The notes under the pieces were generated by a model. The model ran no database searches, was not told the DNA's origin, and saw only the letters and a program-made list of their open reading frames with translations. A stretch of DNA of 36,907 bases from Candidatus Woesearchaeota archaeon (GTDB lineage: Archaea; Nanobdellota; Nanobdellia; Pacearchaeales; GW2011-AR1), in NCBI GenBank assembly GCA_964357655.1, contig CAYHMF010000001.1:1-36907 (forward strand), in the 5' to 3' direction. The translations under genes were made by a program, and so were the position numbers. Shown here one piece after another: positions 5,073-33,151 of this stretch. The first letter of the stretch is position 1; the number at the start of each line of letters is the position of its first letter.

Positions 5073-5791
5073 AAATCGCGATAGTTTGTTGTTTGCACGG
5101 AAACGAGAAATACGGATTGGAAGTTTTAAAAGGGCTTCCGTCCGCCTTCTCTTTTTTTATTGGGAATAAAAGGGCGATGATTGAGAATAAAAGATTTATT
5201 GATTCTGATTTGAATAGGTGCTTTCCAGGAAAACCCCATGGAAATTATGAGGAAAAAAGAGCTTTTGAGTTGGTAAAATCTCTTAAGGATTTTGATTATG
5301 TAATTGATTTGCATTCGTCGTCGAATAATTGTTCTTTGTTTGGGATAATTACAAAACCAAATACCGAAAAAATAGAATTCGCTAAAAGATTGGGATTAAA
5401 AAGATTGGTAATAATGCCTAAAAATTTTGCTAGTGGGCAAGCACTGATAGATTTTACCAAATGCGGAATTAGTCTGGAAATTGGCCCCCATAAAAATAAA
5501 GATAATGTTAGGAAAGTTTCGGAAAAAATTAAAAATTTATTAGAAAATAAAGGCAAAAATAATAATCTGGAAATTTTTGAAGTGTTTGGGAAATTAATTA
5601 AAAAATATGATAAAGTTTTAATCAATAATTTTGATTTTGTAAAAATGGGTCAGCCAATTACAGAAAATTTTGAAGGAGATAGGCAATTCGCAGAATTTGA
5701 TTTTGTAGCTATTCTTGTTGATGAAGAATCTTACGGAAATGTTTTATGTTTAGTGGGAAAACAAGTAAATTTAAAAGTAATGAAAGATTAG
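5069..5791 (+). CDS. succinylglutamate desuccinylase/aspartoacylase (AstE/AspA, M14-like zinc hydrolase) family protein
   Basis: 'CCLHGNEKYG' (HxxE zinc ligands), 'DLNRCFPG' and 'DLHSS' motifs in the family order. Confidence 0.7.
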   Translation: MKIAIVCCLHGNEKYGLEVLKGLPSAFSFFIGNKRAMIENKRFIDSDLNRCFPGKPHGNYEEKRAFELVKSLKDFDYVIDLHSSSNNCSLFGIITKPNTEKIEFAKRLGLKRLVIMPKNFASGQALIDFTKCGISLEIGPHKNKDNVRKVSEKIKNLLENKGKNNNLEIFEVFGKLIKKYDKVLINNFDFVKMGQPITENFEGDRQFAEFDFVAILVDEESYGNVLCLVGKQVNLKVMKD

Positions 5792-5792
5792 T

Positions 5793-7028
5793 ATGAACAT
5801 GATAAAGAAAGAGGCAAAGAGAACTTTGCAAAATTCAAAAAATCGCAAAATTCTCATCGAGAGCATTTTGAAAATTCCTTCAAAAAAGCAAGAAATAGGA
5901 GTTATTCAAACTTCTCCAAAGGTAACTCCTTACGATGTTCAGGGAGACATTGATTATGATAAATTAGTCAAGGAATTTGGAGTTAGCAGAATCGATAACA
6001 AGTTACTCTCGGAAATTAAGAAACATTCTGGGGAATTGCATCATATGTTGAGAAGAGGAATATTTTTTGCGCATCGAGATTTAAAACCTATTTTGGATGA
6101 ATACGATAAAGGAAATAAATTTTTTCTTTATACTGGTTGCGGGCCTTCTGGGCCAATTCATTTGGGGCATTTGGGGACTTGGGTTTTTACAAAATGGTTG
6201 CAGGATGTTTTTGATGTTGAGCTGTGGTTTCAGTTTACCGACGACGAAAAGTTTTTGTATAAGAATCAATCTTATGAAGAGATTCAAAAATGGACATATG
6301 AAAATATGCTGGATGTAATTGCACTTGGTTTTAATCCAAAGAAGACGCATTTTTTGATTGACACAAAACACGCAGGAATTATGTATCCAGAGGCAATAAA
6401 AATAGCCAAGAAAATAAATTTTTCGACGATAAAAGCTGCGTTTGGATTTACTGATGCAAATAATATTGGAAGCATTTTTTATACGAGCATGCAGGCAGTT
6501 CCAGTTATTTTGCCGAGTGTTTTGAAGGGCAAAAAAATTCCTTGTTTAATTCCGCTTGCAATAGACCAGGATCCTCATTTCAGAGTTGCGAGAGATGTTT
6601 ATCCAAAGATTGGGCACCCAAAACCCGCAATTATTCATTCGGTGTTTTTACCTCCTTTAACTGGGATGCAAGGAAAGATGAGCAGTAGTGAGTCTAATAT
6701 AGCAATTCTGACTACAGATTCCCCCGAAGAAGTGAAAAGAAAAATAAACAAGTACGCTTTTTCAGGAGGGCAGGCGACAATTGAAGAGCACAGAAAAAAA
6801 GGAGGGAATCCCGACGTCGATGTTTCATTCCAATACTTAAGATTCTTTTTTGAACCAGATGATAAAAAACTTGAAAAAATTTACAACGATTATAAATCAG
6901 GAAAACTTCTTACTGGAGATTTGAAAAAAATTTTAATAGAAAAAATAAATGCTTTCTTAAAAGAGCACCAGAAAAAAAGAGAACTCGCGAAAAAGCAAGT
7001 CGATAATTTTATTTTTAAGATTCAGTAA
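5793..7028 (+). CDS. trpS: tryptophan--tRNA ligase (archaeal/eukaryotic type) with a ~44-aa N-terminal extension encoded by repeat R1
   Basis: Class I signatures 'GPSGPIHLGHL' (HIGH) and 'KMSSS' (KMSKS). The 'VTPYDVQGDIDYDKLVKEFG' entry is typical of archaeal TrpRS. The start lies 1 nt after the upstream stop. Confidence 0.9.
   Translation: MNMIKKEAKRTLQNSKNRKILIESILKIPSKKQEIGVIQTSPKVTPYDVQGDIDYDKLVKEFGVSRIDNKLLSEIKKHSGELHHMLRRGIFFAHRDLKPILDEYDKGNKFFLYTGCGPSGPIHLGHLGTWVFTKWLQDVFDVELWFQFTDDEKFLYKNQSYEEIQKWTYENMLDVIALGFNPKKTHFLIDTKHAGIMYPEAIKIAKKINFSTIKAAFGFTDANNIGSIFYTSMQAVPVILPSVLKGKKIPCLIPLAIDQDPHFRVARDVYPKIGHPKPAIIHSVFLPPLTGMQGKMSSSESNIAILTTDSPEEVKRKINKYAFSGGQATIEEHRKKGGNPDVDVSFQYLRFFFEPDDKKLEKIYNDYKSGKLLTGDLKKILIEKINAFLKEHQKKRELAKKQVDNFIFKIQ
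5818..5921 (+). repeat. R1 copy A: 104-nt module shared by the 5' coding ends of three genes
   Basis: 97/104 identical to the reverse complement of 21479-21582. Also matches 26868-26994 (reverse complement). Confidence 0.9.
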
Positions 7029-8371: not shown

Positions 8372-8438
8372 GTACTCCTCGCTTTACTCGTCGTGAATTA
8401 TTAACAATTAATTAAATCTGCGAACGAAAGTGAGTAGC
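8372..8438 (-). repeat. R2 copy (inverted relative to the 27140-27206 copy): intergenic repeat, candidate small RNA
   Basis: The reverse complement aligns along about 67 nt with 27140-27206. The alignment includes an exact 18-mer, ttaataattcacgacgag. Confidence 0.8.
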
Positions 8439-8441
8439 TAA

Positions 8442-8544: not shown

Positions 8545-10245
8545 ATGAAGATATTAAGTTTGCATACAGATTATATTAAGTTCAAGCCATTGAAAAAAGC
8601 GTTGAAGAAAATTGCGGATTTGCCTGAAAAGGAAATGGGAGTTGTTAAGATTGATGAGGCTTTGACAATTTTGACTGCTGTTGAAAAAAGTGACACAGAT
8701 ATTCAGGGAGTTGTTAATGCACTTGTCGAGAATGTGAAAGATATTGCTAAACAGGTCAATGCCAAAAATATAGTTTTGTATCCTTACGCGCATTTGTCGT
8801 CGAATTTGGCGAGTCCTGACGTCGCTATTGAGGTTTTGGAAAAATCAGAGAAGGCGCTGAAAAAATTTTTTAACGTCGTCAAAGCACCTTTTGGATATTA
8901 CAAAGAATTTGAAATGAAAGTTAAAGGGCATCCATTGAGTGAGTTGAGTCGAGAGATAAAAGTTGAAGGAAAACTTGGCGAAGAAAAATATGATCCTCAA
9001 CAATTGCTTAGAGAGATTTCAAAGTCTAAATTGGATACTTCTAAACTGAAAGAAAATGATCACAGAATTCTTGGACAGCAAATGGATTTGTATAGCTTTA
9101 ATGAAACTGCGCCAGGAATGGTTTTTTGGCACAATAATGGTCTGATAATCAAGAATGAATTAATTAATTTTTGGAGGGAGATGCACAGAAAGGCAGAATA
9201 CCAAGAAATTTCAACTCCACAAATTCTCGACGAGAAACTATGGAAAATTTCTGGGCATTGGGAAAAATACAAAGAGAATATTTTTTTGACTGATTATGAA
9301 AAAAGAAAATTCGCAGTTAAACCAATGAATTGTCCTGGAGGAATGTTAGTTTACAAAAACAAACCAAAAAGTTACAAAGAACTTCCGTTGAGAGTTGGAG
9401 AGTTAGGAATAGTTCACAGACAAGAACTTTCAGGAGTTTTGGGGGGATTATTCAGAGTAATACAATTCACTCAAGATGATGCTCACATATTCTGCACTGA
9501 AAAACAAATTGAAGATGAGATTGCTAATATTATTAATTTGGTTGATATCTTTTATAAAAAGTTTGATTTGCCTTACCATGTTGAATTTTCTACTCGCCCG
9601 GAGAAAAGGATTGGCTCGGATAAATTATGGAATAAGGCAGAGAAAATTCTCGAGCAGACTTTGAAAAAGAAAAAAATTGCGTTTAAAGTAAATAAAGGCG
9701 ACGGGGCTTTTTACGGGCCGAAAATTGATTTTCACGTCAAGGATTCTTTGGGACGAACATGGCAGTGCGGAACAGTTCAATTGGATTTTGCGATGCCAGA
9801 AAGGTTTAATTTAGAATATACTGAAAATGACAATAAAAGAAAAAGACCGGTGATGATTCATAGAACAATTTACGGAAGTCTTGAAAGATTCATCGGAATT
9901 TTAATTGAACATACGAGAGGAAGACTTCCCGTTTGGTTGGCTCCGACGCAGGTTAGAGTTTTGAGTTTTACTGACAGGAATGAAAATTATGCTAAAGAAA
10001 TTATTAAGAAACTTGGAGAGAAGATTCCTAATTTGAGAATCGACGCTGATTTTACGCAAACAACTGTTCCGTCGAAGGTGAAGGACGCAGAGATTATGAA
10101 AGTTCCGTATATAATTGTGGTTGGAGATAGGGAAGAAAAAGAAAGAACTTTGGCAGTTAGAAAAAAGGGCGACAATAAAATTGAAATGATTAAAGTTAAT
10201 GATTTTATTGAAAAATTGAAGAAAGAGATTGCGGAGAGGGATTAA
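8545..10245 (+). CDS. thrS: threonine--tRNA ligase, archaeal type with N-terminal editing domain
   Basis: The N-terminal 'MKILSLHTDYIKFKP...LYPYAHLSS' matches the archaeal ThrRS editing domain. Class II core: 'FWHNNG', 'RQELSG', 'FTQDDAHIF', 'GAFYGPKIDF'. C-terminal anticodon-binding domain present. Confidence 0.9.
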   Translation: MKILSLHTDYIKFKPLKKALKKIADLPEKEMGVVKIDEALTILTAVEKSDTDIQGVVNALVENVKDIAKQVNAKNIVLYPYAHLSSNLASPDVAIEVLEKSEKALKKFFNVVKAPFGYYKEFEMKVKGHPLSELSREIKVEGKLGEEKYDPQQLLREISKSKLDTSKLKENDHRILGQQMDLYSFNETAPGMVFWHNNGLIIKNELINFWREMHRKAEYQEISTPQILDEKLWKISGHWEKYKENIFLTDYEKRKFAVKPMNCPGGMLVYKNKPKSYKELPLRVGELGIVHRQELSGVLGGLFRVIQFTQDDAHIFCTEKQIEDEIANIINLVDIFYKKFDLPYHVEFSTRPEKRIGSDKLWNKAEKILEQTLKKKKIAFKVNKGDGAFYGPKIDFHVKDSLGRTWQCGTVQLDFAMPERFNLEYTENDNKRKRPVMIHRTIYGSLERFIGILIEHTRGRLPVWLAPTQVRVLSFTDRNENYAKEIIKKLGEKIPNLRIDADFTQTTVPSKVKDAEIMKVPYIIVVGDREEKERTLAVRKKGDNKIEMIKVNDFIEKLKKEIAERD

Positions 10246-13169
10246 TATTCTTTTCCATTAAGGAGTTTCTCATCCCATCCACCAAGTTTCCCTTTAATTT
10301 TTGATTTAGTCATTTTTACTCCAGGGGATTCAAAAATATCTATTGTGTTTGCTCCATTTTTTTCAAGAGCATAAAATGTTTTTTCCCCAAGCAAAACATA
10401 TTGCCATGTGCAATTCATTCTATCTTCAGATTTTAATTCATTAATTTTATCGCACCAATCACATGCAGACAATCTCTTCTTTAAAACATCTTCTTGATTT
10501 AAATCTCTTTCTGCTTTTGTTTCAACAACAAAAATTTTATTTCCTATTTTAACTAAAAAATCGGGAAAATAATGAGCCAACATTCCATCGCTTCTGACAT
10601 AAAGAATATTTGCAAAATTATAAGTATGCTCATTTATTTTCATAAAAGAGTTTACTTTTGAATCTGTATCGATGAAATTAATAAATGCTTTTTCAAACCC
10701 TCCTTTATTTGAAGGAAATCCAACTTTAGGATAAATAGTTTTTGCAACAATTAGGGCATAAGTTTCTCTAATTTTTATTTCATTAACTTCCGAAAACCAT
10801 TTTTTAATTATTGTTGCATCTAAAACCTTTAGTTTCTTTTGCAAATCATAAATTTCTTGGCTAATATTTTTTACAACATGTTTTATTAGTTTTCCTTCAG
10901 TCAATATTAAAATCTTCCAATTGTTATTTTCTAAAGGTTCGAAGTTTTTTCCGAAAAGTTTATGCCGAATATAATTATCAACTAATTTTGCAATTTTTGC
11001 TGAATTTATTTGCATAAGGGGAAATTCTTGAGATTTTCTTTTGTCTTCCAATTTTATTTGAACAGAAGAAACAGCATTAACAACTTTCTGAATAAATTGT
11101 TGATAACTCTTTGCAGTAAAAATATCTGCAGTTACAGAATAATCCCCAAATTTTGTTTTAACAGTTATTTCTTCCCCGTAGAAAACATCGCCTTCTTTTA
11201 CAATTGGCTTTAATTCTTCTAATTTTATTGGGTAAGGTTCCAAATTTTCCAAAGACATTTCTATATCTTCAAATTTTTCTTCTTTATCATGAATAATTAT
11301 TGGCCAAAATAAATCATATTCTTGGTAATTTTCTTTTAATTCAACTTTTATCAAATCTCCGACGATTCTCTCTTTTTTTGGCAATTCTTTAACTTTTCCA
11401 ACTGCATCCCCAAGTTCATTTTCATAGAACTCTACAAATGCGGGATGCTCAATTATGCTTAAAATATCCATGTAGTTAACAGGTTCTATTTTTTTGACTA
11501 ACAAATTAATTCTATTTTCTTCTTTTATTTCTTCATGTGCTTTCTCTCTCCACATTAACCTTAAACCTCTTCCAATCGTTTGCTCTAGAAGAATAAATGA
11601 AGTGCTAGAGCGAAGTGGAACAATTACACAAATGTTATTTACATCAAATCCTTCTCTTAACATTAAAACAGAGATTATTACTTTTGGATTTTTTGATTTA
11701 TCTAAATTAGATAGTTTTAATTTATCTTTTTCCAAAATATTCCCCAATTTTTTTGAATGAATTTCTACAATATCATTTTCACTTAATCCTTCTTGCCTTA
11801 AAAATTGGGTGACATAAGGAACAACAAAAGTATCTTCACACATAATTAACATCTTCGGATGTTTTTCTATATCGTATTCTTCAAATCCTTCAGCTAATCT
11901 TCTTAATTTTTCTAATCCTGCCCTCAACATTACTTTTTGTCCTTCCGACAATGATTGAATGCCTCTGCCTTTTTCTTCTCTTTCAGCTTTAAAATCCAAA
12001 GGCAAAGCAGTAATTTCTTTTCTTTTATCTATTGCAACGGTTTTTACTAAACCCAAATGAATTGCTGTTCTCAAATCAAAATTGATAATTATATGTGGGA
12101 AATAATGCCTTGTTCTTTTTTGTCCGCTTCCAGTAACTGAATAAGGTGTTGCAGAAAAATCAATTTGAACAAATTTTTCTTTTTTATTTTTTGAAATATC
12201 TGAAATTGCCTTTTGCCATTTTTTATCTAGCACTTCATCTCCTTTTTTCAATTCTCCTAAATGATGTGCTTCGTCGTTAAAAACAACTAAATCTTCTAAC
12301 CTAGATAAAAAGTCCAATTCTTTTCCTCTAAAGTAAGCATTATCTAATTCTTCCAATGAGTGTCCTGCTGAAGTCCCGGGGGTTAGGGGAAGAAGTTTTT
12401 TTATTATTTTTCTTGGGGAATCTAAAGCAGAATCTTCTTCTAATTCTTCTTCATCAATTAATAAATGCCAATTTGTTATTGCAATTAAACCTTCGCCAGT
12501 AACTTTTTTCCCAATTTCATCTTTTGAAGCAACTGAACTTTGGATAAAACCAAAAATTTCATCTTTGTATGGGGGCGGGCAAAATAACTCTTCAAATTTT
12601 TTAAAATCTGAAGTTTCAAAATCCCTTGTTTTTGCATCTTTCTTTTTTCCTAAATAAGCATCCAATAGTCTATCATAAACAATTAAACCTGGGGCGATTA
12701 ATAAAAAATTTTTTGAAAATCTTCCAGTTCGCTCTTCATCATATTTTGCATTTAAATACTGCCAAATTAATATTGCATGCATAACCCATGTTTTTCCTGT
12801 TCCTGTAGCCATTTTTATGCAATATTGAGGATGTTCATATTTTTCTTTTTCGTGAGAAATAATATTGATAAATTCTGCAAATAAATCTTTGTTTATTGTC
12901 ATGTATAAATCCTTAATATTTTTTGTTTTCAAAATTTCATGAACATAAATAGTATTTAAAATTGCTTGCCATTGCCCGTCGTGAAATTGAACACTTCTTT
13001 GGTCTCTCCAGCTTCCTTCTGGGGCCCAAAATCTCAACAAATCTTTTGTAATTGGAGAAACCTTTTGCAAAAATGTTCCATCTTCCCACTCTTTATTTGC
13101 CATTTCAGTAATTGCTTTTGCAAACCTTAAAGGCATTTCTCCTGTTCCAAGTGATTTTGCGTTTACCAT
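10242..13169 (-). CDS. res: Type III restriction enzyme Res subunit (SF2 helicase plus C-terminal PD-(D/E)xK nuclease)
   Basis: Motif I 'MATGTGKTW', motif II 'FNDEAHHLG', helicase C 'LREGFDV...TIGRGLR', and C-terminal 'FPDFLVKIGNKIFVVETKAE'. The stop codon overlaps the thrS stop (convergent genes). Confidence 0.85.
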   Translation of the reverse strand: MVNAKSLGTGEMPLRFAKAITEMANKEWEDGTFLQKVSPITKDLLRFWAPEGSWRDQRSVQFHDGQWQAILNTIYVHEILKTKNIKDLYMTINKDLFAEFINIISHEKEKYEHPQYCIKMATGTGKTWVMHAILIWQYLNAKYDEERTGRFSKNFLLIAPGLIVYDRLLDAYLGKKKDAKTRDFETSDFKKFEELFCPPPYKDEIFGFIQSSVASKDEIGKKVTGEGLIAITNWHLLIDEEELEEDSALDSPRKIIKKLLPLTPGTSAGHSLEELDNAYFRGKELDFLSRLEDLVVFNDEAHHLGELKKGDEVLDKKWQKAISDISKNKKEKFVQIDFSATPYSVTGSGQKRTRHYFPHIIINFDLRTAIHLGLVKTVAIDKRKEITALPLDFKAEREEKGRGIQSLSEGQKVMLRAGLEKLRRLAEGFEEYDIEKHPKMLIMCEDTFVVPYVTQFLRQEGLSENDIVEIHSKKLGNILEKDKLKLSNLDKSKNPKVIISVLMLREGFDVNNICVIVPLRSSTSFILLEQTIGRGLRLMWREKAHEEIKEENRINLLVKKIEPVNYMDILSIIEHPAFVEFYENELGDAVGKVKELPKKERIVGDLIKVELKENYQEYDLFWPIIIHDKEEKFEDIEMSLENLEPYPIKLEELKPIVKEGDVFYGEEITVKTKFGDYSVTADIFTAKSYQQFIQKVVNAVSSVQIKLEDKRKSQEFPLMQINSAKIAKLVDNYIRHKLFGKNFEPLENNNWKILILTEGKLIKHVVKNISQEIYDLQKKLKVLDATIIKKWFSEVNEIKIRETYALIVAKTIYPKVGFPSNKGGFEKAFINFIDTDSKVNSFMKINEHTYNFANILYVRSDGMLAHYFPDFLVKIGNKIFVVETKAERDLNQEDVLKKRLSACDWCDKINELKSEDRMNCTWQYVLLGEKTFYALEKNGANTIDIFESPGVKMTKSKIKGKLGGWDEKLLNGKEY

Positions 13170-13172
13170 GAT

Positions 13173-13895
13173 TTATTTTTTATTTTTCTCAAAATCCTCA
13201 ACGGACTTAATTTCAGATTTATTGATAAGGATTGATTTTAGTAGAGCATTTTCATCTTTTAATTTTTCTGGATTATAATCTATAATGTTTTTTATTTTTA
13301 CAATCTCAACGAAATCTTCTCCCGTTTTAACAATCTTACAGATTACTCTTTCCTTATCTTTCAAAACTATTGATTTGAATTTTAATTTTGTAAGAAGTTG
13401 TTCAAAATTTGCTGGAGTAACATTTAGCCCATAAATTACCGAGGCATAAGTTAATGTTAAAAAAGTAATAATTCCTGAAACAAGAGTAAATACAAGAGGT
13501 ATGTCAATAATAAAAATACAATAATTAATTAAGATAGAAGAGAACACTATTAAACAATTATTTGTATTGCTAATATTAAACATCGATTTCTCTTGAAATT
13601 TAAATAATAAAAATTGTAATAAAATAAGAAGTATCCCAACCAAATAAAATAAATTTCCATAACTTGAAAAAATTTCAGAAGAGATATGCCTAAGAATAAA
13701 GAAAAAAGTGAGATATGTTAATAAAAAAGGGATTATTACATGATTTGGAATAAACATTATTCCTTCCAAAACCTCTGAGGTCCAATCTCTGCATAATTCT
13801 TTTCTTGCTTTCAAAATATTTTTTCCAAAAAAAGTTATAGCTACCCCAACTAGAGTAATAATTACAGAAATATTAACAACACTTGAAAATTCCAT
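13173..13895 (-). CDS. polytopic membrane protein of unknown function embedded in the R-M operon
   Basis: 240 aa with about 5-6 hydrophobic segments and a soluble tail of about 85 aa. Its ATG overlaps the mod stop (TAATG). Its stop lies 3 nt before the res ATG. Confidence 0.65.
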   Translation of the reverse strand: MEFSSVVNISVIITLVGVAITFFGKNILKARKELCRDWTSEVLEGIMFIPNHVIIPFLLTYLTFFFILRHISSEIFSSYGNLFYLVGILLILLQFLLFKFQEKSMFNISNTNNCLIVFSSILINYCIFIIDIPLVFTLVSGIITFLTLTYASVIYGLNVTPANFEQLLTKLKFKSIVLKDKERVICKIVKTGEDFVEIVKIKNIIDYNPEKLKDENALLKSILINKSEIKSVEDFEKNKK

Positions 13896-15763
13896 TACTT
13901 CACCTCCTCCACAGCCACGCTTTCAAAACCAAAAACATCTACGGCTTTCACACAAATTTTTCTTTTTCCTTTTATTTTTGGCAGAGTTAGTTTTGCTTTT
14001 TTAATAACTCTAAATTCGTCGTTATCGTTTGCAGTATTTCCTCTATAGTCCTGCCACTTGCTCCTAAAAACTTCTCCGTCATAGTCAGGGTCAATACTCC
14101 AATATTCAATTAAACTTAATGGCTCTTTTTCAATTACTTGAGATAATTTTTCTTGGTTTTCTTTATCTAAAGGAAGAACATCTGGTGAGAGCAAAACATA
14201 ATCATCTAATTCAACAATTATTTCTTCTTGCTCTTTTCCATAGTCCTTTTTTATAATTGGTTTTATTTTTAAATATTGTAAAGAAGAAAATCTAATTTTC
14301 TTTGCTAAATCTTCTGTGCTTGCTTTTGACTTGAGCATATCTAAAAGATTTTGAGGGATAACTAAAACTTCTAATCTTTTGTCTTTCAATGAATCAATTA
14401 CTTTTCCAATATCAAAAACAAAATTCCATCCAAGAACAACAACTTTTTCCCAACCCCCCATAAACGAACCTCTTAACTCTTGTGCTTTCTTTAAAGTGTT
14501 GTATCCAGTCATCTTCGACGGAGAATCAACTAAAACCAAAGTTTTTGAAGATTTTATATAACCTAAATTTGCAGGAGCTTCTTCCTCTTTGAAAGGCAAG
14601 GCACCAAATAAATTTAAAACATTTTGAGACAAATCCCCGATAGTTTTAAATTCCGATTTTTCAAATTGTTCTTTTTGATAATCGCCAATCGACTGATATA
14701 AAAATGGTTTTGAATCCTGATCAATTAATCTTTTTCTCATAATCATGCAAGCTGGCTTTCCTAAATCAGACATAATCCATTTTCTTCCGAGCTTTTCCGC
14801 AACTGCTCCAGTTGTTCCTGAACCAGCGAAGAAATCTGCGACGATTCCGTTTTCAGGACAAGATGCGAGAATAATCCTATTCAATAATTTCTCGGGCTTC
14901 TGTGTTCCATAATCTAATTGTTCTTTTTGACCTTTTGAAAGATTAATTATATCTATCCAATTAGAACCTATAGCGAATTTTGCTTCATCAAGATAATATT
15001 TTTTATACTCTTTACCGCTTGAGGTAATATAAATAAGATTTTGTTTTCTAAAGTTCTCAATAGAATCTTGAGAATAATCTCCTAATTGAACTTTTTTAAA
15101 TTTTCTACCATCTGGTTCAGAATACATATATTCTCTTAATTGTGTTTGTGTAAGTTCTTCTCTATAAATTTGATTAAAATATGTTCCAGAAGATTTTCCA
15201 TAAAATAATAAAAAATCATTTTCTCTGGACCATTGTTTTGAAGTTCCTTTTGCTCCTTTTCCCGCAGAATCTCTTTGCCAAATTATTTCATTTCTAAAAT
15301 TCTCCTTCCCGAAAATCTCATCCATAATCACTTTAACATAATGTCCAACATGCCAATCAATATGAACATAAATTGAACCTTGCTCACTCAAAAGTTCTCT
15401 CATTAAAATTAATCTTGGAATCATCATCTGCAAATAAGAAGCTGTTCCGTCTTTCCATGTGTCTGAATATGCAAACTGCTCAATCACTGTTGGTTTTTGT
15501 TCAATATCTGTATTTGGAAGATGAATTTTTGTTCTATAATCTGCCTTGCTATCAAACGGAGGGTCAATATAAATTAAGTCTATTTTTCCACGCATAGAAG
15601 AAAGCCCAGTTTGTTTGTCTCCTGCTAAAAGAGCCTGCATTGCAAGTAAGTTATCTCCATAAACAAGACGATTAAACCAATCTCGGTTCTTTATTTCTTT
15701 AATTTGCCCTCTAAAAAGCCCACTCATAATCTTCTTTTCTTTTTTCAACTTTATTAATTTCAT
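13895..15763 (-). CDS. mod: Type III-like DNA methyltransferase Mod (beta-class N6A/N4C MTase)
   Basis: Motif IV 'IYIDPPFDS' lies upstream of motif I '[24 protein letters not shown]'. An alternative start, ATG at 15727 ('MSGLFRG'), is plausible. Confidence 0.85.
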
Positions 15764-16283
15764 TTGCCCTATTTAATCCTGCGTCGGTTAAATTACTCGA
15801 ACCCGAAATTATTCTACCTTCATCCCCAAAACCACCGCCTTTTGAAGTAAAAATATAGATTTTACCATGCATATCCTGATTAGGAGAAGCACGAATCTTT
15901 AGTTTTCCAGAAACTATCCAATCAATAAATTTCTTTGTTCCCTCTTCAACTTCAAAGGTATCTCTTGATTCTTCATATTCATGAACAATATTATTCTCTA
16001 TTTCTTTTTTTATTTCAGAAGTGGAATCTTTCAATTTTAATTGGCTTTCTTTTGCATGACTTAACATATCAAAAGTCTGTTTATTGGTACTTATTCCAAC
16101 CAAAACTTTTATTTCATTTACATTCTCTAAATCTTTGTATATTCTAAAAAATCCACTTGCATAAAAATAACCTACCAAACAACTAAATTCTTTTGTATTC
16201 TTAAGTAAGGTCTTAAAGTGATTTTCCAAGGTATCGTCGCCTTTGTTTGTAATAAATGTTGTATCTGCCATTTTACCTGCCAT
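15711..16283 (-). CDS. PLD/HKD-family nuclease-like protein
   Basis: 190 aa with HKD signature 'HGKIYIF...GSSNLT'. Its 3' end overlaps the mod 5' end. Confidence 0.75.
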
Positions 16284-17290: not shown

Positions 17291-17872
17291 ATGATAAATA
17301 AAATAGAAAAAGAATTTTTGCAGAATTCAAATTGGATTGAAAGCGAATATTCTAATATTGCGATGGAAGATTCTATTAAAGCGTGGGATTACGCGAAGAA
17401 AAACAAGCAAAATATAACAATTGATTATATTAAAGAAATTCACAAAAAATTAATGATAAGATTAAATCCCAAAATCGCTGGGAAGATTAGGAATTGCAGA
17501 ATTTACGTCGGGGGTTTTTCAGAATACAAAGAATGCTTGAAACCAAAATATGTCACGAAAAAGTTGGAAGAATGGGTTAAAAATTCGAATATAAAAGAAG
17601 AAAGCGAATGCCCTCCAAGTGAAAGAGCAAAAAAAGCCCATATAGTTTTTGAAAATATACATCCATTTAAAGACGGAAATGGGAGACTTGGGAGAATTTT
17701 GATGAATGTTCAAAGATTAAATGCAGAACTTCCGTTGCTCGTTATTTATGAAAAAGAAAAACAAGATTATTACAAATGGTTTGAACAAGATACAAATAAC
17801 AAATGCAAGGATTTTAGAGACCCTTTAGCAGATTTATTTGTTTACGGAGTGCAAAGATGGAAGGAAAAATGA
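17291..17872 (+). CDS. fic: Fic/DOC family protein
   Basis: Canonical Fic motif 'HPFKDGNGRLGR'. Confidence 0.85.
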   Translation: MINKIEKEFLQNSNWIESEYSNIAMEDSIKAWDYAKKNKQNITIDYIKEIHKKLMIRLNPKIAGKIRNCRIYVGGFSEYKECLKPKYVTKKLEEWVKNSNIKEESECPPSERAKKAHIVFENIHPFKDGNGRLGRILMNVQRLNAELPLLVIYEKEKQDYYKWFEQDTNNKCKDFRDPLADLFVYGVQRWKEK

Positions 17873-18423
17873 AATTGATAACTAAGAGATTGATTCTTAG
17901 AAATTTGAATGTGAAAGACGCTAAAGATTTAGTTGATAATATAAATGATTTGGAGGTTTCGAAATATTTGGCAGTTGTTCCGCATCCTTATTTAATTAAA
18001 GATGCTAAATGGTATATTAATAAAACTATCAAAGATTCTAAGAGAAAGAATAGGGAAGATTATAATTTTGGGGTAGAACTAAAATCAGAAAAGAAAATTA
18101 TCGGATGTATTGGTTTACATAAAATTGATAAATTTAATAGTACGGCAGAAGTAGGTTATTGGTTAGGTAAAAAATATTGGAGGCGAGGAATTATGACTTA
18201 GGCAATGAGTGAATTAATTGATTTTGCTTTCAAGAAATTAAAATTGAGGAGATTAAATTTACCCGCTTATGTCGAGAATGTTGCTTCAAATGCGTTAGCC
18301 AAAAAATTGGGTTTTAAATTAGAGGGAACTTTAAGAAAATATCATAAAACAAAATCTACTGGAAGAATACATGATGCAAATATTTATGGTTTGCTGAGAG
18401 AAGAATGGGGGAGCCAAAAATGA
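17857..18423 (+). pseudogene. RimJ/RimL-type GNAT acetyltransferase interrupted by one in-frame TAG
   Basis: ORFs 17857-18201 and 18205-18423 are in the same frame. The sequence reads 'GYWLGKKYWRRGIMT*AMSELIDFAF', and the stop sits where this family normally has Glu. Confidence 0.7.
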
Positions 18424-20884: not shown

Positions 20885-21610
20885 TTATTTTTGAGCGATA
20901 AAATTAATCATCATTTCTGAATTGTGCGTACTTTTGATTTTAAATCCGGCGTCTTTAAACAAATCGTGAATTTCTTTTTCTTCATAAAAGTAATAATATC
21001 TTAGTCCTTTATCTGTCCATCTAATGTATTTTTCTTTTTTAGAATTCTTGAATCTTTTTGATTTGAAGTTCCAGACACCAATATCTGTTTCTGCTCCAGG
21101 TTTTAAAACCCTGAATAATTCTTCGATTACTTTTTTACGATTTTCTTCTCCGTGGATGCATGTGAGAACAGCTATGCAGATTGCAGAATCAAAATAATTG
21201 TCTTCAAAAGGAAGTTTTGCGATATCTGCCACAAAAAATTCTGCTTCGATATTTAATTTTTTTGCTCTTTTTTTGGCTAGTTTAATCATCTCTTTTGAAA
21301 AATCTACAAGATGCATTTTTCCTTTTGTTTTAAGATTAATTAAGTGTCTTCCACTTCCACTTCCCAAATCAAGAATATTTCCTTTTTTATTTTTAAGAAA
21401 TTCTAAAACATGTTCTGCAGGGGTTGTTTTAAATTCTGTCCATTCAGACGCAATCGCATCCCATATTTCTTTTTGATTCTTTGGAGAAGTTTGAATAATT
21501 CCTATTCCTTGCTTTTTCGAAGGAATTTTCAAAGTGCTCTGTATGAGAATTTTGCGATTCTTTGAATTTTGCAAAGTTCTCTTTACTAATTTCTTTTCAA
21601 TATTTTCCAT
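20885..21610 (-). CDS. class I SAM-dependent methyltransferase with an R1-encoded N-terminal extension
   Basis: Motif I 'ILDLGSGSGRH' and post-I 'VDFS'. The first ~45 aa are nearly identical to the TrpRS N-terminus. Confidence 0.8.
   Translation of the reverse strand: MENIEKKLVKRTLQNSKNRKILIQSTLKIPSKKQGIGIIQTSPKNQKEIWDAIASEWTEFKTTPAEHVLEFLKNKKGNILDLGSGSGRHLINLKTKGKMHLVDFSKEMIKLAKKRAKKLNIEAEFFVADIAKLPFEDNYFDSAICIAVLTCIHGEENRKKVIEELFRVLKPGAETDIGVWNFKSKRFKNSKKEKYIRWTDKGLRYYYFYEEKEIHDLFKDAGFKIKSTHNSEMMINFIAQK
21479..21582 (-). repeat. R1 copy B
   Basis: 97/104 identity to 5818-5921 in the sense orientation of its host gene. Confidence 0.9.
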
Positions 21611-21698
21611 AAATTACTAATAAGTAATTCTTTTATAAGGATTTTTGTATTTGAATAGCTATCTTGAAATTAGAACATCAAATTAGAGAATATAAATA

Positions 21699-21706
21699 TT
21701 TATTAA
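21699..21706 (+). promoter_or_regulatory. TATA-like box (tttattaa)
   Basis: 22 nt upstream of the ATG at 21728. The surrounding 16-mer ataaatatttattaaa recurs at about 22365-22380. Confidence 0.4.
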
Positions 21707-21727
21707 ACGTTAAATGGTATAATTTGG

Positions 21728-22045
21728 ATGTTTGATAAGTATGGGCAAAAAAAAGAAATTGTAGAGTTGCGTGAAAAATTTTTAGAAAATAACGTGCTTG
21801 TAGGTTCTTTAATTGCGTGTGCTGTAAAAGAAGACCATCTTTCTTTATCAGAAATAGAGGAATTTATTTCTCAATATAATCTACTTCACGAAATTGTGAT
21901 TAAGACAAGTGAATATAATAAATTTTATGTTGATGAAGATATGATGAACGAAGAAAAAATGTTAGTCTCTTGTTTTGAGGAAGCGAAGTCAGGATTAGCA
22001 AAATTAATTTACAATATTTATAGACAAAATGTCAAACAAAATTGA
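21728..22045 (+). CDS. small helical protein, paralog 1 of a tandem triplet
   Basis: Shares 'Y.LLHE......YN..Y.D......E......C......L' with the next two ORFs. Confidence 0.5.
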   Translation: MFDKYGQKKEIVELREKFLENNVLVGSLIACAVKEDHLSLSEIEEFISQYNLLHEIVIKTSEYNKFYVDEDMMNEEKMLVSCFEEAKSGLAKLIYNIYRQNVKQN

Positions 22046-22352
22046 TGAAGATATAGAAAAAAATAAAATCCTAGTTTTGATTTATGATTATTATTCAAGT
22101 AAAAAGACTATTGAATCAATGCTTCAAATAGCAATAGATAAAATGAGCAAAAATGAGGATTATGCTCTTGATATTAAGTTATGTAGGAAGTCGTATAAAT
22201 TGCTTCAAGAAGCTGTAACGCGAGCCAAGAGGTATAATAAAGTTTATTCTGATACAAGAATTAAAAATATTGAAAGTACGATGAGTCTTTGTTTGGACGG
22301 TGAGAAAAAGATATTGGAAGATGTAACATATGTTTTTGAGCATAAAAATTAA
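22029..22352 (+). CDS. small helical protein, paralog 2
   Basis: 'SYKLLQEAVTRAKRYNKVYSDTRIKNIESTMSLCLDGEKKILEDV' aligns with paralog 3. Overlaps paralog 1 by 17 nt. Confidence 0.5.
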   Translation: MSNKIDEDIEKNKILVLIYDYYSSKKTIESMLQIAIDKMSKNEDYALDIKLCRKSYKLLQEAVTRAKRYNKVYSDTRIKNIESTMSLCLDGEKKILEDVTYVFEHKN

Positions 22353-22380
22353 AAGAAAAGAAACAATAAATATTTATTAA

Positions 22381-22716
22381 ATGTCTAATTATAAAACAAA
22401 AGAAAAAGAGAGGATTTTGAATTTATTAAATGAACATTTTGATAACGAGGTTATTGTGAAATTATCCTTGAAAGCAGTGCTAAATAACAAAAATGATAGT
22501 CGTATTTCACAATTTGATATTGATTTATCTTGGGGTTCATATGATCTCCTCCATGAAGTTTTTACGAGTACCAAAAAATATAACGAGGATTATTCTGATT
22601 TGAAAATGCAAGAGGTTGAAAAAGAAACAAGGTCTTGTTTAGCGGGGTCAAGAGAAATATTGGAAAATTTAATTTCTGCTCTAGAAATTAAGAAGTTAAG
22701 AGAAAAGAAACAATAA
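22381..22716 (+). CDS. small helical protein, paralog 3
   Basis: 'SYDLLHEVFTSTKKYNEDYSDLKMQEVEKETRSCLAGSREILENL'. Confidence 0.5.
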   Translation: MSNYKTKEKERILNLLNEHFDNEVIVKLSLKAVLNNKNDSRISQFDIDLSWGSYDLLHEVFTSTKKYNEDYSDLKMQEVEKETRSCLAGSREILENLISALEIKKLREKKQ

Positions 22717-22717
22717 A

Positions 22718-22725
22718 ATTATAAA
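22718..22725 (+). promoter_or_regulatory. TATA-like box (attataaa)
   Basis: 22 nt upstream of the elp3 ATG at 22747. Confidence 0.45.
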
Positions 22726-22746
22726 CTTCCTCCTCTTTTTTTTATT

Positions 22747-24159
22747 ATGCTACCGCCTAAATTTGGGGAAGTGAGAAAACCGACGAAAACCATTTCAGGA
22801 ATTACTCCGGTCGCTGTTATGCTCCCCCCACGCAAGTGTGAACATGGTGCTTGTTTGTATTGTCCTTCGTTGGATGTTCCTCAGAGTTATACCCCAAAGA
22901 GTCCGGTTGTGATGAGAGCAAGTGAAGTTGGTTATGATTCTTATGAGCAGGTTGTTGGAAGACTGAAGGCGTTCAAGGCGATGAATCATCCGACGGAAAA
23001 AATTGAGTTGATAATTATGGGGGGGACTTTTTTAGAGTATGCCGAGGATTTTCAGGAAAATTTTGTGAAGGGTTGTTATGATGCGTTGAACGATAAAAAA
23101 TCCGAGACGCTTAAACAAGCGCAAGAATTAAACGAGAATTCTAAATCAAGATGTGTTGCTCTTTGTATTGAGACTCGACCTGATGTTTGCTCAAAGTTTA
23201 TTGGTAGGATGATGAAGCTTGGTTGCACGCGTGTTGAACTTGGCGTGCAAATTATCGACGACGAAATTTACCAAAATATCAAACGAGGGCACACTGTCAA
23301 AGATGTTGTCGACGCGACGAGGAATTTGAAGAACGCTGGGTTTAAAGTTGGCTATCACATAATGCCTGGCTTACCTGGAAGCAATTTGAAAAAAGATTTG
23401 GTGCTATTCAATAAGCTTTTTTCCGACGAGAATTTTAAACCAGACCAATTGAAAATTTATCCGTGCCAAGTCGTTCGCGGAGCAGAACTTGAGAAATTTT
23501 ACTGGGATAAAAAATACGAACCTTATAATAAAGAACAGACAGAGAAAATTATTATTGATATGTTGAAAAATACTCCGAGGTATTGCAGAGTTATGAGAGT
23601 GATGAGGGAAATTCCTCCCGAGTATCTTGTTGCAGGAACAATTCATATTGATTTAAGAAAAGATATTGAAAAAGAGCTTAGGAAAAAGGATACAAAATTG
23701 GAAGAGATTCGTTATCGAGAAATTGGTTTTGCGATGCAAGCAGGCGGAGAAATAAATGGTGATTTGAGTTTGAAAATTATGAGATACGACGCGAGTGGGG
23801 GGGAGGAATATTTTTTAGAGATTGTGAATAAAGATGATATTTTGTTTGGATTGTTGAGGTTGAGGATTTTTGAAGAAGAGACAGATTCACAAGTTCATGA
23901 TATTAGTGGATCAAAAAAACAAGCAATAATTCGGGAACTTCATGTTTATGGTAAGAGTTTAAAGTTGGGAGAAAAATCTTCGAAGGCGTTTCAGCATCAA
24001 GGAATTGGAAAATGGTTGCTTGGTTCTGCTGAAGAAATTGTTAAAAGTAGGGAGATTAAAAAATTAAAAGTTATTAGCGGGGTTGGGGTTAGAAATTATT
24101 ACAGAAATCTTGGATATGAATTGGACGACGAGGGGTATGTTGTTAAGATGTTTGATTGA
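22747..24159 (+). CDS. elp3: Elp3-type radical SAM/GNAT tRNA uridine(34) modification enzyme
   Basis: Radical-SAM cysteine cluster 'CEHGACLYCPS', 'ELIIMGGTF', 'RVELGVQ', and a C-terminal GNAT 'HQGIGKWLL'. Confidence 0.85.
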   Translation: MLPPKFGEVRKPTKTISGITPVAVMLPPRKCEHGACLYCPSLDVPQSYTPKSPVVMRASEVGYDSYEQVVGRLKAFKAMNHPTEKIELIIMGGTFLEYAEDFQENFVKGCYDALNDKKSETLKQAQELNENSKSRCVALCIETRPDVCSKFIGRMMKLGCTRVELGVQIIDDEIYQNIKRGHTVKDVVDATRNLKNAGFKVGYHIMPGLPGSNLKKDLVLFNKLFSDENFKPDQLKIYPCQVVRGAELEKFYWDKKYEPYNKEQTEKIIIDMLKNTPRYCRVMRVMREIPPEYLVAGTIHIDLRKDIEKELRKKDTKLEEIRYREIGFAMQAGGEINGDLSLKIMRYDASGGEEYFLEIVNKDDILFGLLRLRIFEEETDSQVHDISGSKKQAIIRELHVYGKSLKLGEKSSKAFQHQGIGKWLLGSAEEIVKSREIKKLKVISGVGVRNYYRNLGYELDDEGYVVKMFD

Positions 24160-25753: not shown

Positions 25754-26005
25754 TTATTTGTTATAAATGTTTTTGCGATGTCCAACTTTCAAAATAATAA
25801 TTGTTTCTTTTTCAATAGAAAATATAATTCTATAATCTCCAACTCGTAATCTAAAATATTCGTAGTCTTTTAATCTTTTTATATCTTTAGAAAAAGGATT
25901 ATCGGATAATTCTTCTACTTTTTTTACAATTCTTCTGGAGACGCTTGGTTCAAGTTTGTTTAAAGAATCGTGAGCTTTTTCATCCCAAATTATTTTGAAT
26001 GGCAT
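25754..26005 (-). CDS. type II toxin-antitoxin system RelE/ParE-family toxin
   Basis: 83 aa. 'KDYEYFRLRVGDYRIIFSIEKETIIILKVGHRKNIY' is the typical family C-terminus. 1-nt overlap with the upstream small gene. Confidence 0.8.
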   Translation of the reverse strand: MPFKIIWDEKAHDSLNKLEPSVSRRIVKKVEELSDNPFSKDIKRLKDYEYFRLRVGDYRIIFSIEKETIIILKVGHRKNIYNK

Positions 26006-26223
26006 TATAATCTAAGCCCTTTTTTAACTTCTTCATGCGTAATGAATTTCCCAGTCTTCACTCTTTTTCTTGCTTCTTCTATCTCTTTTTTTGTTTTTTC
26101 ATTTAATTCTAAATCATCTTCAATCATTCTTTCTATAATTTCATTATATGTTTCTCTTTCCATCATTTTCATTTTATCTAGAACTAATTTTACATTATCT
26201 GATATTTGGATTGTTGTCGCCAT
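26005..26223 (-). CDS. putative antitoxin
   Basis: 72 aa, directly upstream of and overlapping the RelE-like gene. Confidence 0.6.
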   Translation of the reverse strand: MATTIQISDNVKLVLDKMKMMERETYNEIIERMIEDDLELNEKTKKEIEEARKRVKTGKFITHEEVKKGLRL

Positions 26224-26369: not shown

Positions 26370-26509
26370 GCAAATTTCTTCGAAATTTTCATTAATCAAT
26401 TTTTCGCGAAAAAATTAATTAAACTCGGATTATCGCTTCGAGCGAAAAATCTTTTTGAATTTAACGTATTAGAATCTTGAGAATAAAATCCCCTCTTCGA
26501 TGGTATAAA

Positions 26510-26582
26510 CGCCCCGTCCGAGATTCGAACTCGGGTTACATCCTTGAAAGGGATGAGTCCTTGGCCTCTAGACTAACGGGGC
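26510..26582 (-). tRNA. tRNA-Glu (anticodon TTC)
   Basis: Manual cloverleaf: GCCCCGT/ACGGGGC acceptor, GTCT/GGAC D-stem, CATCC-CTTTCAA-GGATG anticodon arm, CCGAG-TTCGAAT-CTCGG T-arm. No encoded CCA. Confidence 0.9.
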
Positions 26583-26630
26583 ATGAAAATAAATGATTAA
26601 ATTAGTTTTTAAAGCTTTCAGAATTCCTAT

Positions 26631-26957
26631 CTATTTCTCAGATTCCTTTATTAATTGCACACCTGTAACAATTCCCCATATCCAAGAAGACACAGGCCCG
26701 AATATTAGAATCGGAACACCTATTAATAATCCAATAATACTCACGATGCCTATTATAAATAAAATACCAGTAAATAATCCCCCAATTAAAAGAACCAGTT
26801 GCCATATCCCTTCTTTCGTCTTGCCACCAATTAAACTTCCCAATCCAGGGAGTATTAGTATGTTAAGAGAAGTTTGAATAATTCCTATCTCTTGCTTTTT
26901 TGAAGGAATTATTCCTTTTTCTTGCTTTTTTGAAGGAATTTTCAAAATGCTCTTCAT
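26631..26957 (-). CDS. small integral membrane protein whose 5' part is R1-derived; probably the downstream part of a frameshifted longer ORF
   Basis: 108 aa with two or three hydrophobic segments ('GIWQLVLLIGGLFTGILFIIGIVSIIGLLIGVPILIFGPV'). The N-terminal 'ILKIPSKKQE.GI' unit is duplicated. Confidence 0.6.
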   Translation of the reverse strand: MKSILKIPSKKQEKGIIPSKKQEIGIIQTSLNILILPGLGSLIGGKTKEGIWQLVLLIGGLFTGILFIIGIVSIIGLLIGVPILIFGPVSSWIWGIVTGVQLIKESEK

Positions 26958-26994
26958 GAGAATTTTGCGATTTTTGAATTTTGCAAAGTTCTCT
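26868..26994 (-). repeat. R1 copy C, with an internal 30-nt duplication and a 1-nt shorter A-run
   Basis: Aligns to copies A and B across agagaactttgcaaaattcaaa...caaacttct. Confidence 0.85.
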
Positions 26995-27139
26995 TAAGTA
27001 ATAAACAAGCTATTGCAAGAGACTCGCTTATTTTTCTTTTTTTAGCCATGTTTATACCAGGTATATTTGATTTATAAATTTATTTGAATTTGAAAGTGTT
27101 AAGCTATCGTGATTAACCCCCAATTTAAAATCCTATTTT

Positions 27140-27206
27140 GCTACTCACATTCGTTCGCAGATTTAACTTAAAATTAATAATTCACGACGAGCAAATGCGA
27201 GGAGTG
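27140..27206 (+). repeat. R2 copy: intergenic repeat, candidate small RNA
   Basis: Matches the reverse complement of 8372-8438. It also shares an exact 23-mer (27171-27193) with 2131-2153. Confidence 0.8.
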
Positions 27207-27261: not shown

Positions 27262-27388
27262 TGAGCCTGCACAGATTTGAACTGTGGACCCCCGCCTCTC
27301 TTAGATTCCCTATAATCTTAGAGATATAATTCTAACGAATTATTTTCATATAAGAGCGGTGCTCTAAACCAGGCTGAGCTACAGGCTC
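27262..27388 (-). tRNA. intron-containing tRNA, anticodon TAT (tRNA-Ile UAU)
   Basis: Manual fold: GAGCCTG/CAGGCTC acceptor, GCTC/GAGC D-stem, CCGCT/GGCGG anticodon stem, CACAG-TTCAAAT-CTGTG T-arm. A 51-nt intron sits at the canonical 37/38 position with a bulge-helix-bulge motif. Confidence 0.8.
27298..27348 (-). other. tRNA intron (51 nt, canonical position 37/38)
   Basis: A 4-bp central helix, C32-U33-U34-A35 paired with intron UAAG, is flanked by two 3-nt bulges that carry the two splice sites. Confidence 0.7.
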
Positions 27389-32965: not shown

Positions 32966-33110
32966 ACTTTGTAAACAAAATTTTAGAACGCATTGGAAAC
33001 AATTAAACGTTAAACTTTGTAAACAAAATTTTAGAACGCATTGGAAACAATTAAACGTTAAACTTTGTAAACAAAATTTTAAAGACGCTCTTGAGATTGT
33101 AACTAGATAA
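32936..33110 (+). repeat. tandem array: four ~29-30-nt copies of the ychF-like gene's terminal codons alternating with three identical 19-nt spacers (actttgtaaacaaaatttt)
   Basis: Terminal-codon modules at 32936-32965, 32985-33013, 33033-33061 and 33081-33110. Spacers at 32966-32984, 33014-33032 and 33062-33080. The two central 48-nt units are identical. Confidence 0.9.
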
Positions 33111-33151
33111 GTATAAAAATTGAAATTGTTTAATAAAGAAAAAGAGCTAAG

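Follow-up and report, generated by a model that had tools for sequence, protein, structure and literature searches.

Why do three unrelated genes of an ultra-small archaeon share nearly the same hundred nucleotides close to their start codons? The question is raised by a stretch of 36,907 nt (hereafter the window: contig CAYHMF010000001.1 of assembly GCA_964357655.1, Candidatus Woesearchaeota archaeon, positions 1 to 36,907 of the forward strand), which has a GC content of 31% and originates from Hainich groundwater (well H41, 0.1-um fraction, to which assemblies ERZ1292624 and ERZ1292625 belong); judged by protein, its nearest relatives carry the label Nanoarchaeota or Pacearchaeota. The initial annotation of the window, made from the sequence alone, described a module of about 104 nt in the 5' coding regions of trpS, a methyltransferase gene and a small membrane-protein gene, and envisaged a mobile 5' cassette, gene conversion or a shared N-terminal tag. 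Our analysis indicates, with a probability that we put at about 0.9, that the module is a MITE (miniature inverted-repeat transposable element), i.e. a non-autonomous transposon, belonging to a family of Pacearchaeota-type DPANN archaea.

The window contains three near-identical copies of the module: copy A at 5819–5916 (+), copy B at 21484–21581 (-) and copy C at 26867–26993 (-). Copies A and B are identical at 98 of 105 positions (5817–5921 versus 21479–21583), which is equivalent to the 97/104 first reported. As also reported, all three are in the sense orientation in the 5' part of an open reading frame (ORF); they lie within its first 18 codons. Each half of the module occurs two to three times in the window as against 0 times in 100 dinucleotide shuffles of it, and nhmmer detected no fourth copy in the window. 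The ends of the element were set by aligning the window copies with seven additional copies from Hainich metagenome contigs (L002–L008), which gave a canonical length of 98 bp. The element is bounded by 10-bp terminal inverted repeats (TIRs; GAGAAsTTTG / CAAAsTTCTC), its start, GAGAACTTTG, and its end, CAAACTTCTC, being complementary at 9 of 10 positions, and two internal hairpins form on either strand (z about -3.3 to -4.3 compared to shuffles). It has no transposase gene or ORF of its own: six-frame translation yields short open frames only. Stop codons are absent from two of the three sense frames but occur in the remaining one and in every antisense frame, and the antisense strand carries T6 runs. 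The consensus includes an internal ATG (CTCATGAAG), which was lost in copies A and B and kept in copy C. With a target-site duplication (TSD) of 4 bp, the element amounts to 102 nt, i.e. 34 codons, and the encoded peptide is lysine-rich, with stretches such as ILIESILK and IPSKKQEIGVIQTSPK.

Copy A lies in trpS (5793–7028, +), the gene for tryptophan-tRNA ligase (TrpRS; 411 aa including a 34-aa insert), and was delimited by alignment, by the empty site in orthologues and by a second assembly. The trpS product is 100% identical to P0002 ('tryptophan--tRNA ligase [Nanoarchaeota archaeon]' at NCBI); an exact look-up of the ORF from its first ATG gave no match because the annotated start is different (409 aa). 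The element follows codon 9 counted from the ATG at 5793, or codon 7 from the NCBI start, and adds 34 in-frame codons. The nearest TrpRS, P0003 (80% identity), starts MIKKASKVTPWEVEG, that is MIKKASK-VTPWEV, at the place where the window protein reads MIKKEAK[RTLQ...TSPK]VTPYDVQG (34 aa in brackets). The same is seen in the DNA: the trpS locus of the nearest relative (L010/L011) lacks the element and reads ..GCAAGCAAAGTAACTCC.., with a single CAAA (..AGCAAAGTAACTCC..), and the window has ..GAGGCAAA ahead of the element and CAAA followed by GGTAACTCC.. behind it, so that CAAA stands on either side (5815–5818 and 5917–5920, both +). The 119 other TrpRS relatives listed are all 367–394 aa long, as opposed to 409–411 aa in the window, and thus have no room for 34 extra residues; the insert peptide is absent from the N-termini of the best 58 of these 119. 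TrpRS would tolerate the insert, to judge from the N-terminus of the family, which is variable in length in the orthologue alignment, and from the AlphaFold2 model, in which the predicted local distance difference test score (pLDDT) exceeds 85 in the core and is below 50 for residues 7–39, where the alignment is without depth. Copy A and both its flanks recur in an independent assembly (L009, 99.99% identity over 8660 nt).

Copy B was placed by alignment and by orthologues that start M(N/K)xQxxVWD without an insert. It follows codon 10 of the gene for a class I S-adenosylmethionine-dependent methyltransferase (20885–21610, -; 241 aa including the insert; proteins P0122 and P0393) and is flanked by TAAA (21582–21585) and CAAA (21480–21483). 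Relatives of this enzyme are 193–225 aa long (mostly 197–209) as compared to 241 aa in the window, and start M(N/K/E)xQxxVWD, e.g. MNQKQVWD; the window protein reads MENIEKKLVK[34 aa]NQKEIWD. In both enzymes the extension is therefore specific to this lineage, a point that the initial annotation had proposed to check. An exact look-up of the methyltransferase ORF from its first ATG gave no match either. When synteny with L039 was used to look for the native 5' flank of the methyltransferase gene, the upstream gene was not conserved. The two junctions of copy B were confirmed only separately, the 5' one in L005 and the 3' one in L012, a contig that starts inside the element. Note that L005 (1–3334, compared with window 21480–23082) is 99.6% identical as far as copy B reaches on its 3' side and then runs into a different flank (SLNSKSLLAGALLLLF*, followed by an isopropylmalate/homocitrate-synthase-like gene and the gene for leucyl-tRNA synthetase). 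The same 3' flank is found behind a third 5' flank (MELRIFKKL) in P0001, a 57-aa ORF that is mostly element-encoded. These flank swaps reflect either recombination or inversion between copies, or an assembly that is chimeric at the repeat.

Is the element translated in these two genes? The trpS ATG at 5793 is 1 nt past the upstream stop (5789–5791), as first noted, and the start codons lie 24 nt (trpS) and 27 nt (methyltransferase) ahead of the module start given in the initial annotation, close to the 25–28 nt stated there. No in-frame ATG separates the module from the conserved cores, as the same annotation observed, and no in-frame GTG does either; other possible starts are limited to TTG codons that lie within the element. 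Production of the enzymes would therefore require translation of at least part of the insert. Very probably, to judge from the sequence, the insert contributes N-terminal residues to both TrpRS and the methyltransferase, and to this extent the description of the module as N-terminal coding sequence stands. It does not supply the N-terminus, however, nor is it a mobile 5' cassette: the native start codons and the first 7, 10 and 18 codons of the three genes are kept, and the element sits behind them.

Copy C, delimited with the help of orthologues and of a second assembly (L008), is 127 bp long (98 - 1 + 30) and is flanked by TTAA on both sides (26994–26997 and 26863–26866, -). It follows codon 18 of its host gene, within the region coding for the first transmembrane helix. 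The relatives of this membrane protein are uninterrupted (..LAILSLILNILIMPGLG.. / ...KISEGLAILSLILNILIMPGLGTLIGGK...), and the window reads MAKKRKISESLAIACLLL[element]NILILPGLGSLIGGK; with the insertion, the hydropathy of the first transmembrane segment goes from 2.39 to 1.55. The copy has lost 1 nt from an A-run and carries an internal tandem duplication of 30 nt (26881–26940, -; units 26911–26940 and 26881–26910), so the frame break, across which nucleotide similarity had been seen to continue, is real. As it stands, the gene falls into two parts, a 31-codon remnant (26954–27049, -), consisting of MAKKRKISESLAIACLLL and element-encoded residues up to a stop after the frameshift, and a 108-codon ORF (26631–26957, -) that runs from the internal ATG of the element into the rest of the membrane protein. 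Presumably the insertion came first and the deletion and the duplication were acquired later, splitting the gene, the downstream part of which would now be expressible only from the ATG within the element. The copy and both its flanks, including the deletion and the duplication, are reproduced in the independent assembly L008.

The insertion sites themselves bear the mark of transposition. A TSD of 4 bp is perfect in five of the eight Hainich copies (A, CAAA/CAAA; C, TTAA/TTAA; L004, TAAA/TAAA; L007, TTAA/TTAA; L005, TAAA/TAAA), the chance of a 4/4 match being 0.0067 per element at the given base composition, and the targets in the Hainich copies are A/T-rich 4-mers. The insert is missing from the orthologues of each host gene, and removal of the element together with one repeat in silico restores normal N-termini of TrpRS and the methyltransferase (MNMIKKEAKVTPYDV... 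and MENIEKKLVKNQKEIWD...) as well as an unbroken membrane-protein ORF of 95 aa, which can be aligned with P0242 over its full length at 64% identity. Because the sites are empty in orthologues and excision restores the genes, we conclude that the three sites are insertions with a 4-bp TSD. The spread of mobile DNA, which the initial annotation had suspected, is thus borne out by TIRs, TSDs and empty sites. Gene conversion, also proposed there, is not required, since recent transposition with 4-bp TSDs accounts for the identity of the copies; as a primary cause we rejected it on the ground that the TSDs argue for insertion. A bulge–helix–bulge intron was likewise rejected, the insert being in frame and TSD-flanked, and so was an intein, for which the element is far too small.

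The initial annotation had proposed to count copies beyond the contig: the Hainich H41 population holds at least nine element loci, and relatives occur in several other Pacearchaeota metagenome-assembled genomes (MAGs). Five Hainich copies are intergenic or out of frame. L002 and L006 carry the element between genes, L003 has it some 90 nt upstream of a gene, and in L004 it stands between an antitoxin-like and a toxin-like ORF, with a 1-nt insertion; in L007 a 12-nt deletion variant immediately follows a stop codon. Every informative copy points the same way as the gene that it occupies or precedes. Contigs L012 and L003 break off inside the element. Directly 3' of the element in L002 (reverse strand, about 1–31) and L006 (1011–1049), a related repeat, GAGAAATTAGCAAAAYCCAAAAAAATT..., is followed by the contig end, which points to a second, diverged family in tandem or to a nested insertion, also breaking assemblies.

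A scan of a genome collection with the 3' end of the element (GGAATTATTCAAACTTCTC) returned 26 loci, 17 of them in Pacearchaeota/Nanoarchaeota-type MAGs from other sites. Related elements were found in MaH-04nov19-88, Hainich H32-bin084_1, RIFOXYB1_FULL_32_8.8, NC_groundwater_1202 and one bin labelled Methanosarcinales; they have the same termini and are mostly 79–109 nt long (range 79–230), and the two-hairpin layout is common to the 79-nt type and several longer relatives. Where the 5' end could be identified (13 relatives), the TSD is perfect (4/4) in eight cases (TATA, TAAA, TTAA, AAAA, CGAA, TTCA) and matches at 3/4 in three more. A profile made solely from 79-nt elements, six in number and taken from other Pacearchaeota MAGs, aligns with the three copies of the window over their full length (E 1e-8 to 1e-11). 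Ten loci (L001 and the bacterial or other loci L018, L020-L023, L025, L026, L032 and L037) were set aside as chance matches to short patterns. The 5'-hairpin pattern had 0 matches in the genome-contig collection, and both patterns had 0 matches in viral contigs, which gives no sign of a virus-borne copy. A peptide profile search of 5.8 billion proteins returned a single match, P0001; it says nothing about rarity, because the TrpRS and the methyltransferase of the window (P0002 and P0393), which are present in that collection, were missed. In L015 (4041–4119; a Pacearchaeota MAG from Californian groundwater) an ORF enters a 79-nt relative and stops at its 3' end, so this relative gives the ORF a C-terminal tail and its stop codon.

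Taken as a MITE, the element would be mobilised in trans by a DDE-type transposase encoded elsewhere, which would recognise the 10-bp TIRs and insert it at A/T-rich 4-bp targets that are then duplicated. Within genes, insertions would survive only in the sense orientation, since stop codons close every frame other than two of the sense ones, and only in a permissive place, namely the first few codons, ahead of the conserved core. The orientation bias would be explained by the antisense stop codons together with the antisense T6 runs, oligo-T acting as a terminator in archaea. In trpS and the methyltransferase gene, the product would be an N-proximal insert of 34 residues, lysine-rich and probably unstructured, behind the start codon of the gene itself, and the near-identity of the copies would reflect recent transposition and not a shared peptide function.

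Several observations weigh against this interpretation or limit it. A Pfam scan of 40 ORFs revealed no transposase in the window, and no TIR pair of the size of an insertion sequence (IS) around a transposase was found among 40 loci; the only IS-sized pair, in L014, encloses ORFs without a transposase. The repeats are imperfect at three sites, with a 3/4 match (copy B, TAAA/CAAA; L002 and L006, TAAA/TATA). In all three host genes the copy is read in one and the same frame, although two are open, an outcome with a chance of about 1 in 4, which leaves room for selection on the peptide, and the substitutions avoid the stems, which leaves a possible role of RNA or DNA structure beyond transposition. 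Finally, that the inserts are translated is deduced from the reading frames.

Could the element owe its present positions to its structure? It might have spread as a MITE and then been exapted as a cis-acting RNA or DNA structure, retained at gene starts for regulation of the host genes by its two hairpins; it might, for example, stabilise the mRNA at its 5' end, attenuate translation or bind a protein. Both hairpins are indeed more stable than shuffled sequences, the stems are almost invariant over nine copies (one compensatory CG->UA change and one UA->UG change giving a G-U pair, with the variable columns mostly in loops and linkers), and the co-orientation of the informative copies with neighbouring genes would fit. 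The invariance of the stems is nevertheless of little statistical weight, since the nine copies have a mean column identity of 94%, and the single compensatory pair was reached in 60 of 500 shuffles. Moreover, terminal hairpins are expected of a MITE anyway, antisense stops and T6 runs would explain the orientation more simply, and the host genes are functionally unrelated, one of them being broken. No Rfam covariance model matched the element, either at the gathering score or at E <= 1 (the window yields two tRNAs only). We therefore regard exaptation as unlikely. Selection on the peptide is a very improbable explanation in our view: the insert would then be a functional N-terminal tag (targeting, interaction or tRNA binding) spread by selection, gene conversion or exon-shuffling-like recombination. 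Such a tag would account for the reading frame shared by the three genes and for the peptide in P0001, and a lysine-rich insert loosely resembles the N-terminal tRNA-binding appendices of eukaryotic tRNA synthetases. However, five copies are intergenic or out of frame, and the comparison of copies A and B (3 synonymous and 4 non-synonymous changes by inspection, in answer to the dN/dS calculation suggested earlier) gives no sign of strong purifying selection. The tag is also at odds with the low pLDDT of the insert, in a region where the alignment has no depth, and with the listed TrpRS relatives, 119 of 119 without room for it. Copy C breaks a conserved transmembrane helix and is frameshifted; together with the copies outside gene starts, this disfavours the shared tag of the initial annotation and favours selfish insertion.

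That the arrangement is an artefact, with contigs misjoined or padded at a short repeat, is exceedingly improbable, even though the coverage of the public assemblies is only 2-4x, the 5' flank of copy B is followed in L005 by another 3' flank, and two contigs break inside the element. For copies A and C, orthologues show that both flanks come from one gene, and both copies recur in independent assemblies of replicate samples (L009 and L008), which dismisses the chimera considered in the initial annotation; a 98-bp element is, in addition, shorter than a typical read pair. The doubt is confined to the pairing of the two flanks of copy B, whose exact arrangement is uncertain.

A MITE thus being the preferred reading, the 98-bp subfamily of the window might further be coding-compatible, i.e. 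routinely translated within host proteins, including an essential tRNA synthetase, and even donating a start codon and N-terminus (copy C). It would then be the archaeal counterpart of Rickettsia palindromic elements (RPEs) and a source of new N-terminal sequence. This idea, which we put forward tentatively and hold to be somewhat doubtful, is based on three properties: the length of element plus TSD is divisible by three, stop codons are missing from two sense frames, and there is an internal ATG. None of the 79-nt relatives found (79 + 4 = 83 nt, not a multiple of three) lies inside a long ORF, which fits the notion that the 102-nt footprint lets the window subfamily persist in coding sequence.

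How does the element compare with known systems? Prokaryotic MITEs include RUP of Streptococcus pneumoniae, Correia of Neisseria and SM of Sulfolobus, to which the element is likened by architecture and not by sequence comparison. It has the size, TIRs, TSD, multiple copies and empty sites of a MITE and lacks a transposase of its own. Archaeal MITEs are on record, including in DPANN genomes, which are among the densest, and about 89% of them are intergenic (PMC11602168). Like other MITEs, the element is small, non-coding, hairpin-forming, multicopy, bounded by TIRs and a short TSD, polymorphic for presence or absence between relatives, and associated with contig breaks (PMC10969869, PMC11602168). 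By contrast, all three copies in the contig are intragenic, and neither a partner IS nor a transposase turned up in the window or among the 40 loci. TSDs of 4 bp are made by ISs of the IS5, IS701 and ISH3 groups, which may offer a lead. MITEs can fuse in frame with host ORFs, as RPEs most notably do: these palindromic repeats of about 100-150 bp occur in frame in unrelated genes, adding a conserved peptide and leaving the host protein intact, in a reduced-genome, host-dependent organism (PMC10969869). In a similar way, trpS and the methyltransferase gene stay open through the insert, with 34 added codons. The likeness is an analogy only, not sequence membership: the element belongs to another domain of life, it has clear TIRs and 4-bp TSDs, typical of classical cut-and-paste-type insertion, and its few in-gene cases all lie within the first 18 codons, one being disruptive. 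Repetitive extragenic palindromic sequences (REPs) are extragenic by name and are not known to duplicate their target. They measure 20-40 bp and have GTAG/CGTC heads (PMC3733652). The element shares with REPs and bacterial interspersed mosaic elements (BIMEs), which are mobilised by IS200/IS605-like REP-associated tyrosine transposases (RAYTs), that it is short, repeated and hairpin-forming; its 98 bp, GAGAA start, 4-bp TSD and three intragenic copies rule out that identity. The element is thus a further case of a known kind, with MITEs and RPEs as the closest parallels. What is notable is its multiple-of-three footprint and the fact that it sits in the gene for an essential tRNA synthetase in an archaeon with a reduced genome.

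The trpS insertion provides a clean case, with a documented empty site, of a transposon in frame inside an essential gene of an ultra-small archaeon, and parallels the situation in Rickettsia, likewise reduced in genome and host-dependent. The shared termini and the 4-bp duplication define a MITE family for Pacearchaeota-type genomes, which accounts for contigs that are broken or perhaps misjoined in these MAGs and inflates or distorts N-terminal annotations; in particular, the 34 extra residues of TrpRS and the methyltransferase should not be taken for a domain. If the inserts are translated, they constitute a natural experiment on the tolerance of both enzymes to N-terminal sequence.

The remainder of the window holds several unrelated features. 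A defence/addiction cluster at 10242-16283 (-), 17291-17872 (+) and 25754-26223 (-) encodes a restriction helicase of type III (ResIII), a DNA methylase (N6_N4_Mtase), a nuclease of the PLD family, a Fic protein and a ParE toxin–antitoxin pair. A GNAT (Acetyltransf_3) gene at 17857-18423 (+) is interrupted by an in-frame TAG at 18199-18201, giving ORFs of 114 aa and 72 aa (..WRRGIMT*AMSELIDF..). L012, an independent assembly, shows the TAG as well; in L039 the orthologue is unbroken (182 aa). The gene is either a pseudogene or subject to stop read-through. The sole Pfam match of a 1417-aa ORF at 27478-31731 (+), to the Nup98-type autopeptidase S59 (residues 1127-1241), is borderline (28.2 bits for a cut-off of 28.4).

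At the 3' end of an Obg/YchF-like GTPase gene (31784-32965), three tandem 48-nt units, 83-85% identical, lie at 32940-33083 (+); they copy the last codons of that gene together with its stop and spacer, and are followed by a DALEIVTR* remnant (about 33085-33111). A tRNA-Glu(TTC) gene is located at 26509-26583 (-). The other tRNA gene (27262-27388, -; 127 nt; Rfam 50.7 bits), missed by ARAGORN, presumably contains an intron of about 54 nt. A second repeat family comprises two 59-nt copies, 86% identical, at 8383-8441 (+) and 27137-27195 (-), with similarity beginning some 8 nt before that, at ACTCCTCGC. They lie in intergenic DNA, the first upstream of thrS and the second between the intron-containing tRNA gene and the gene hosting copy C. 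The repeat folds weakly (z -1.6 to -2.0), is without a match in Rfam, and may represent either a small RNA or a further small repeat.

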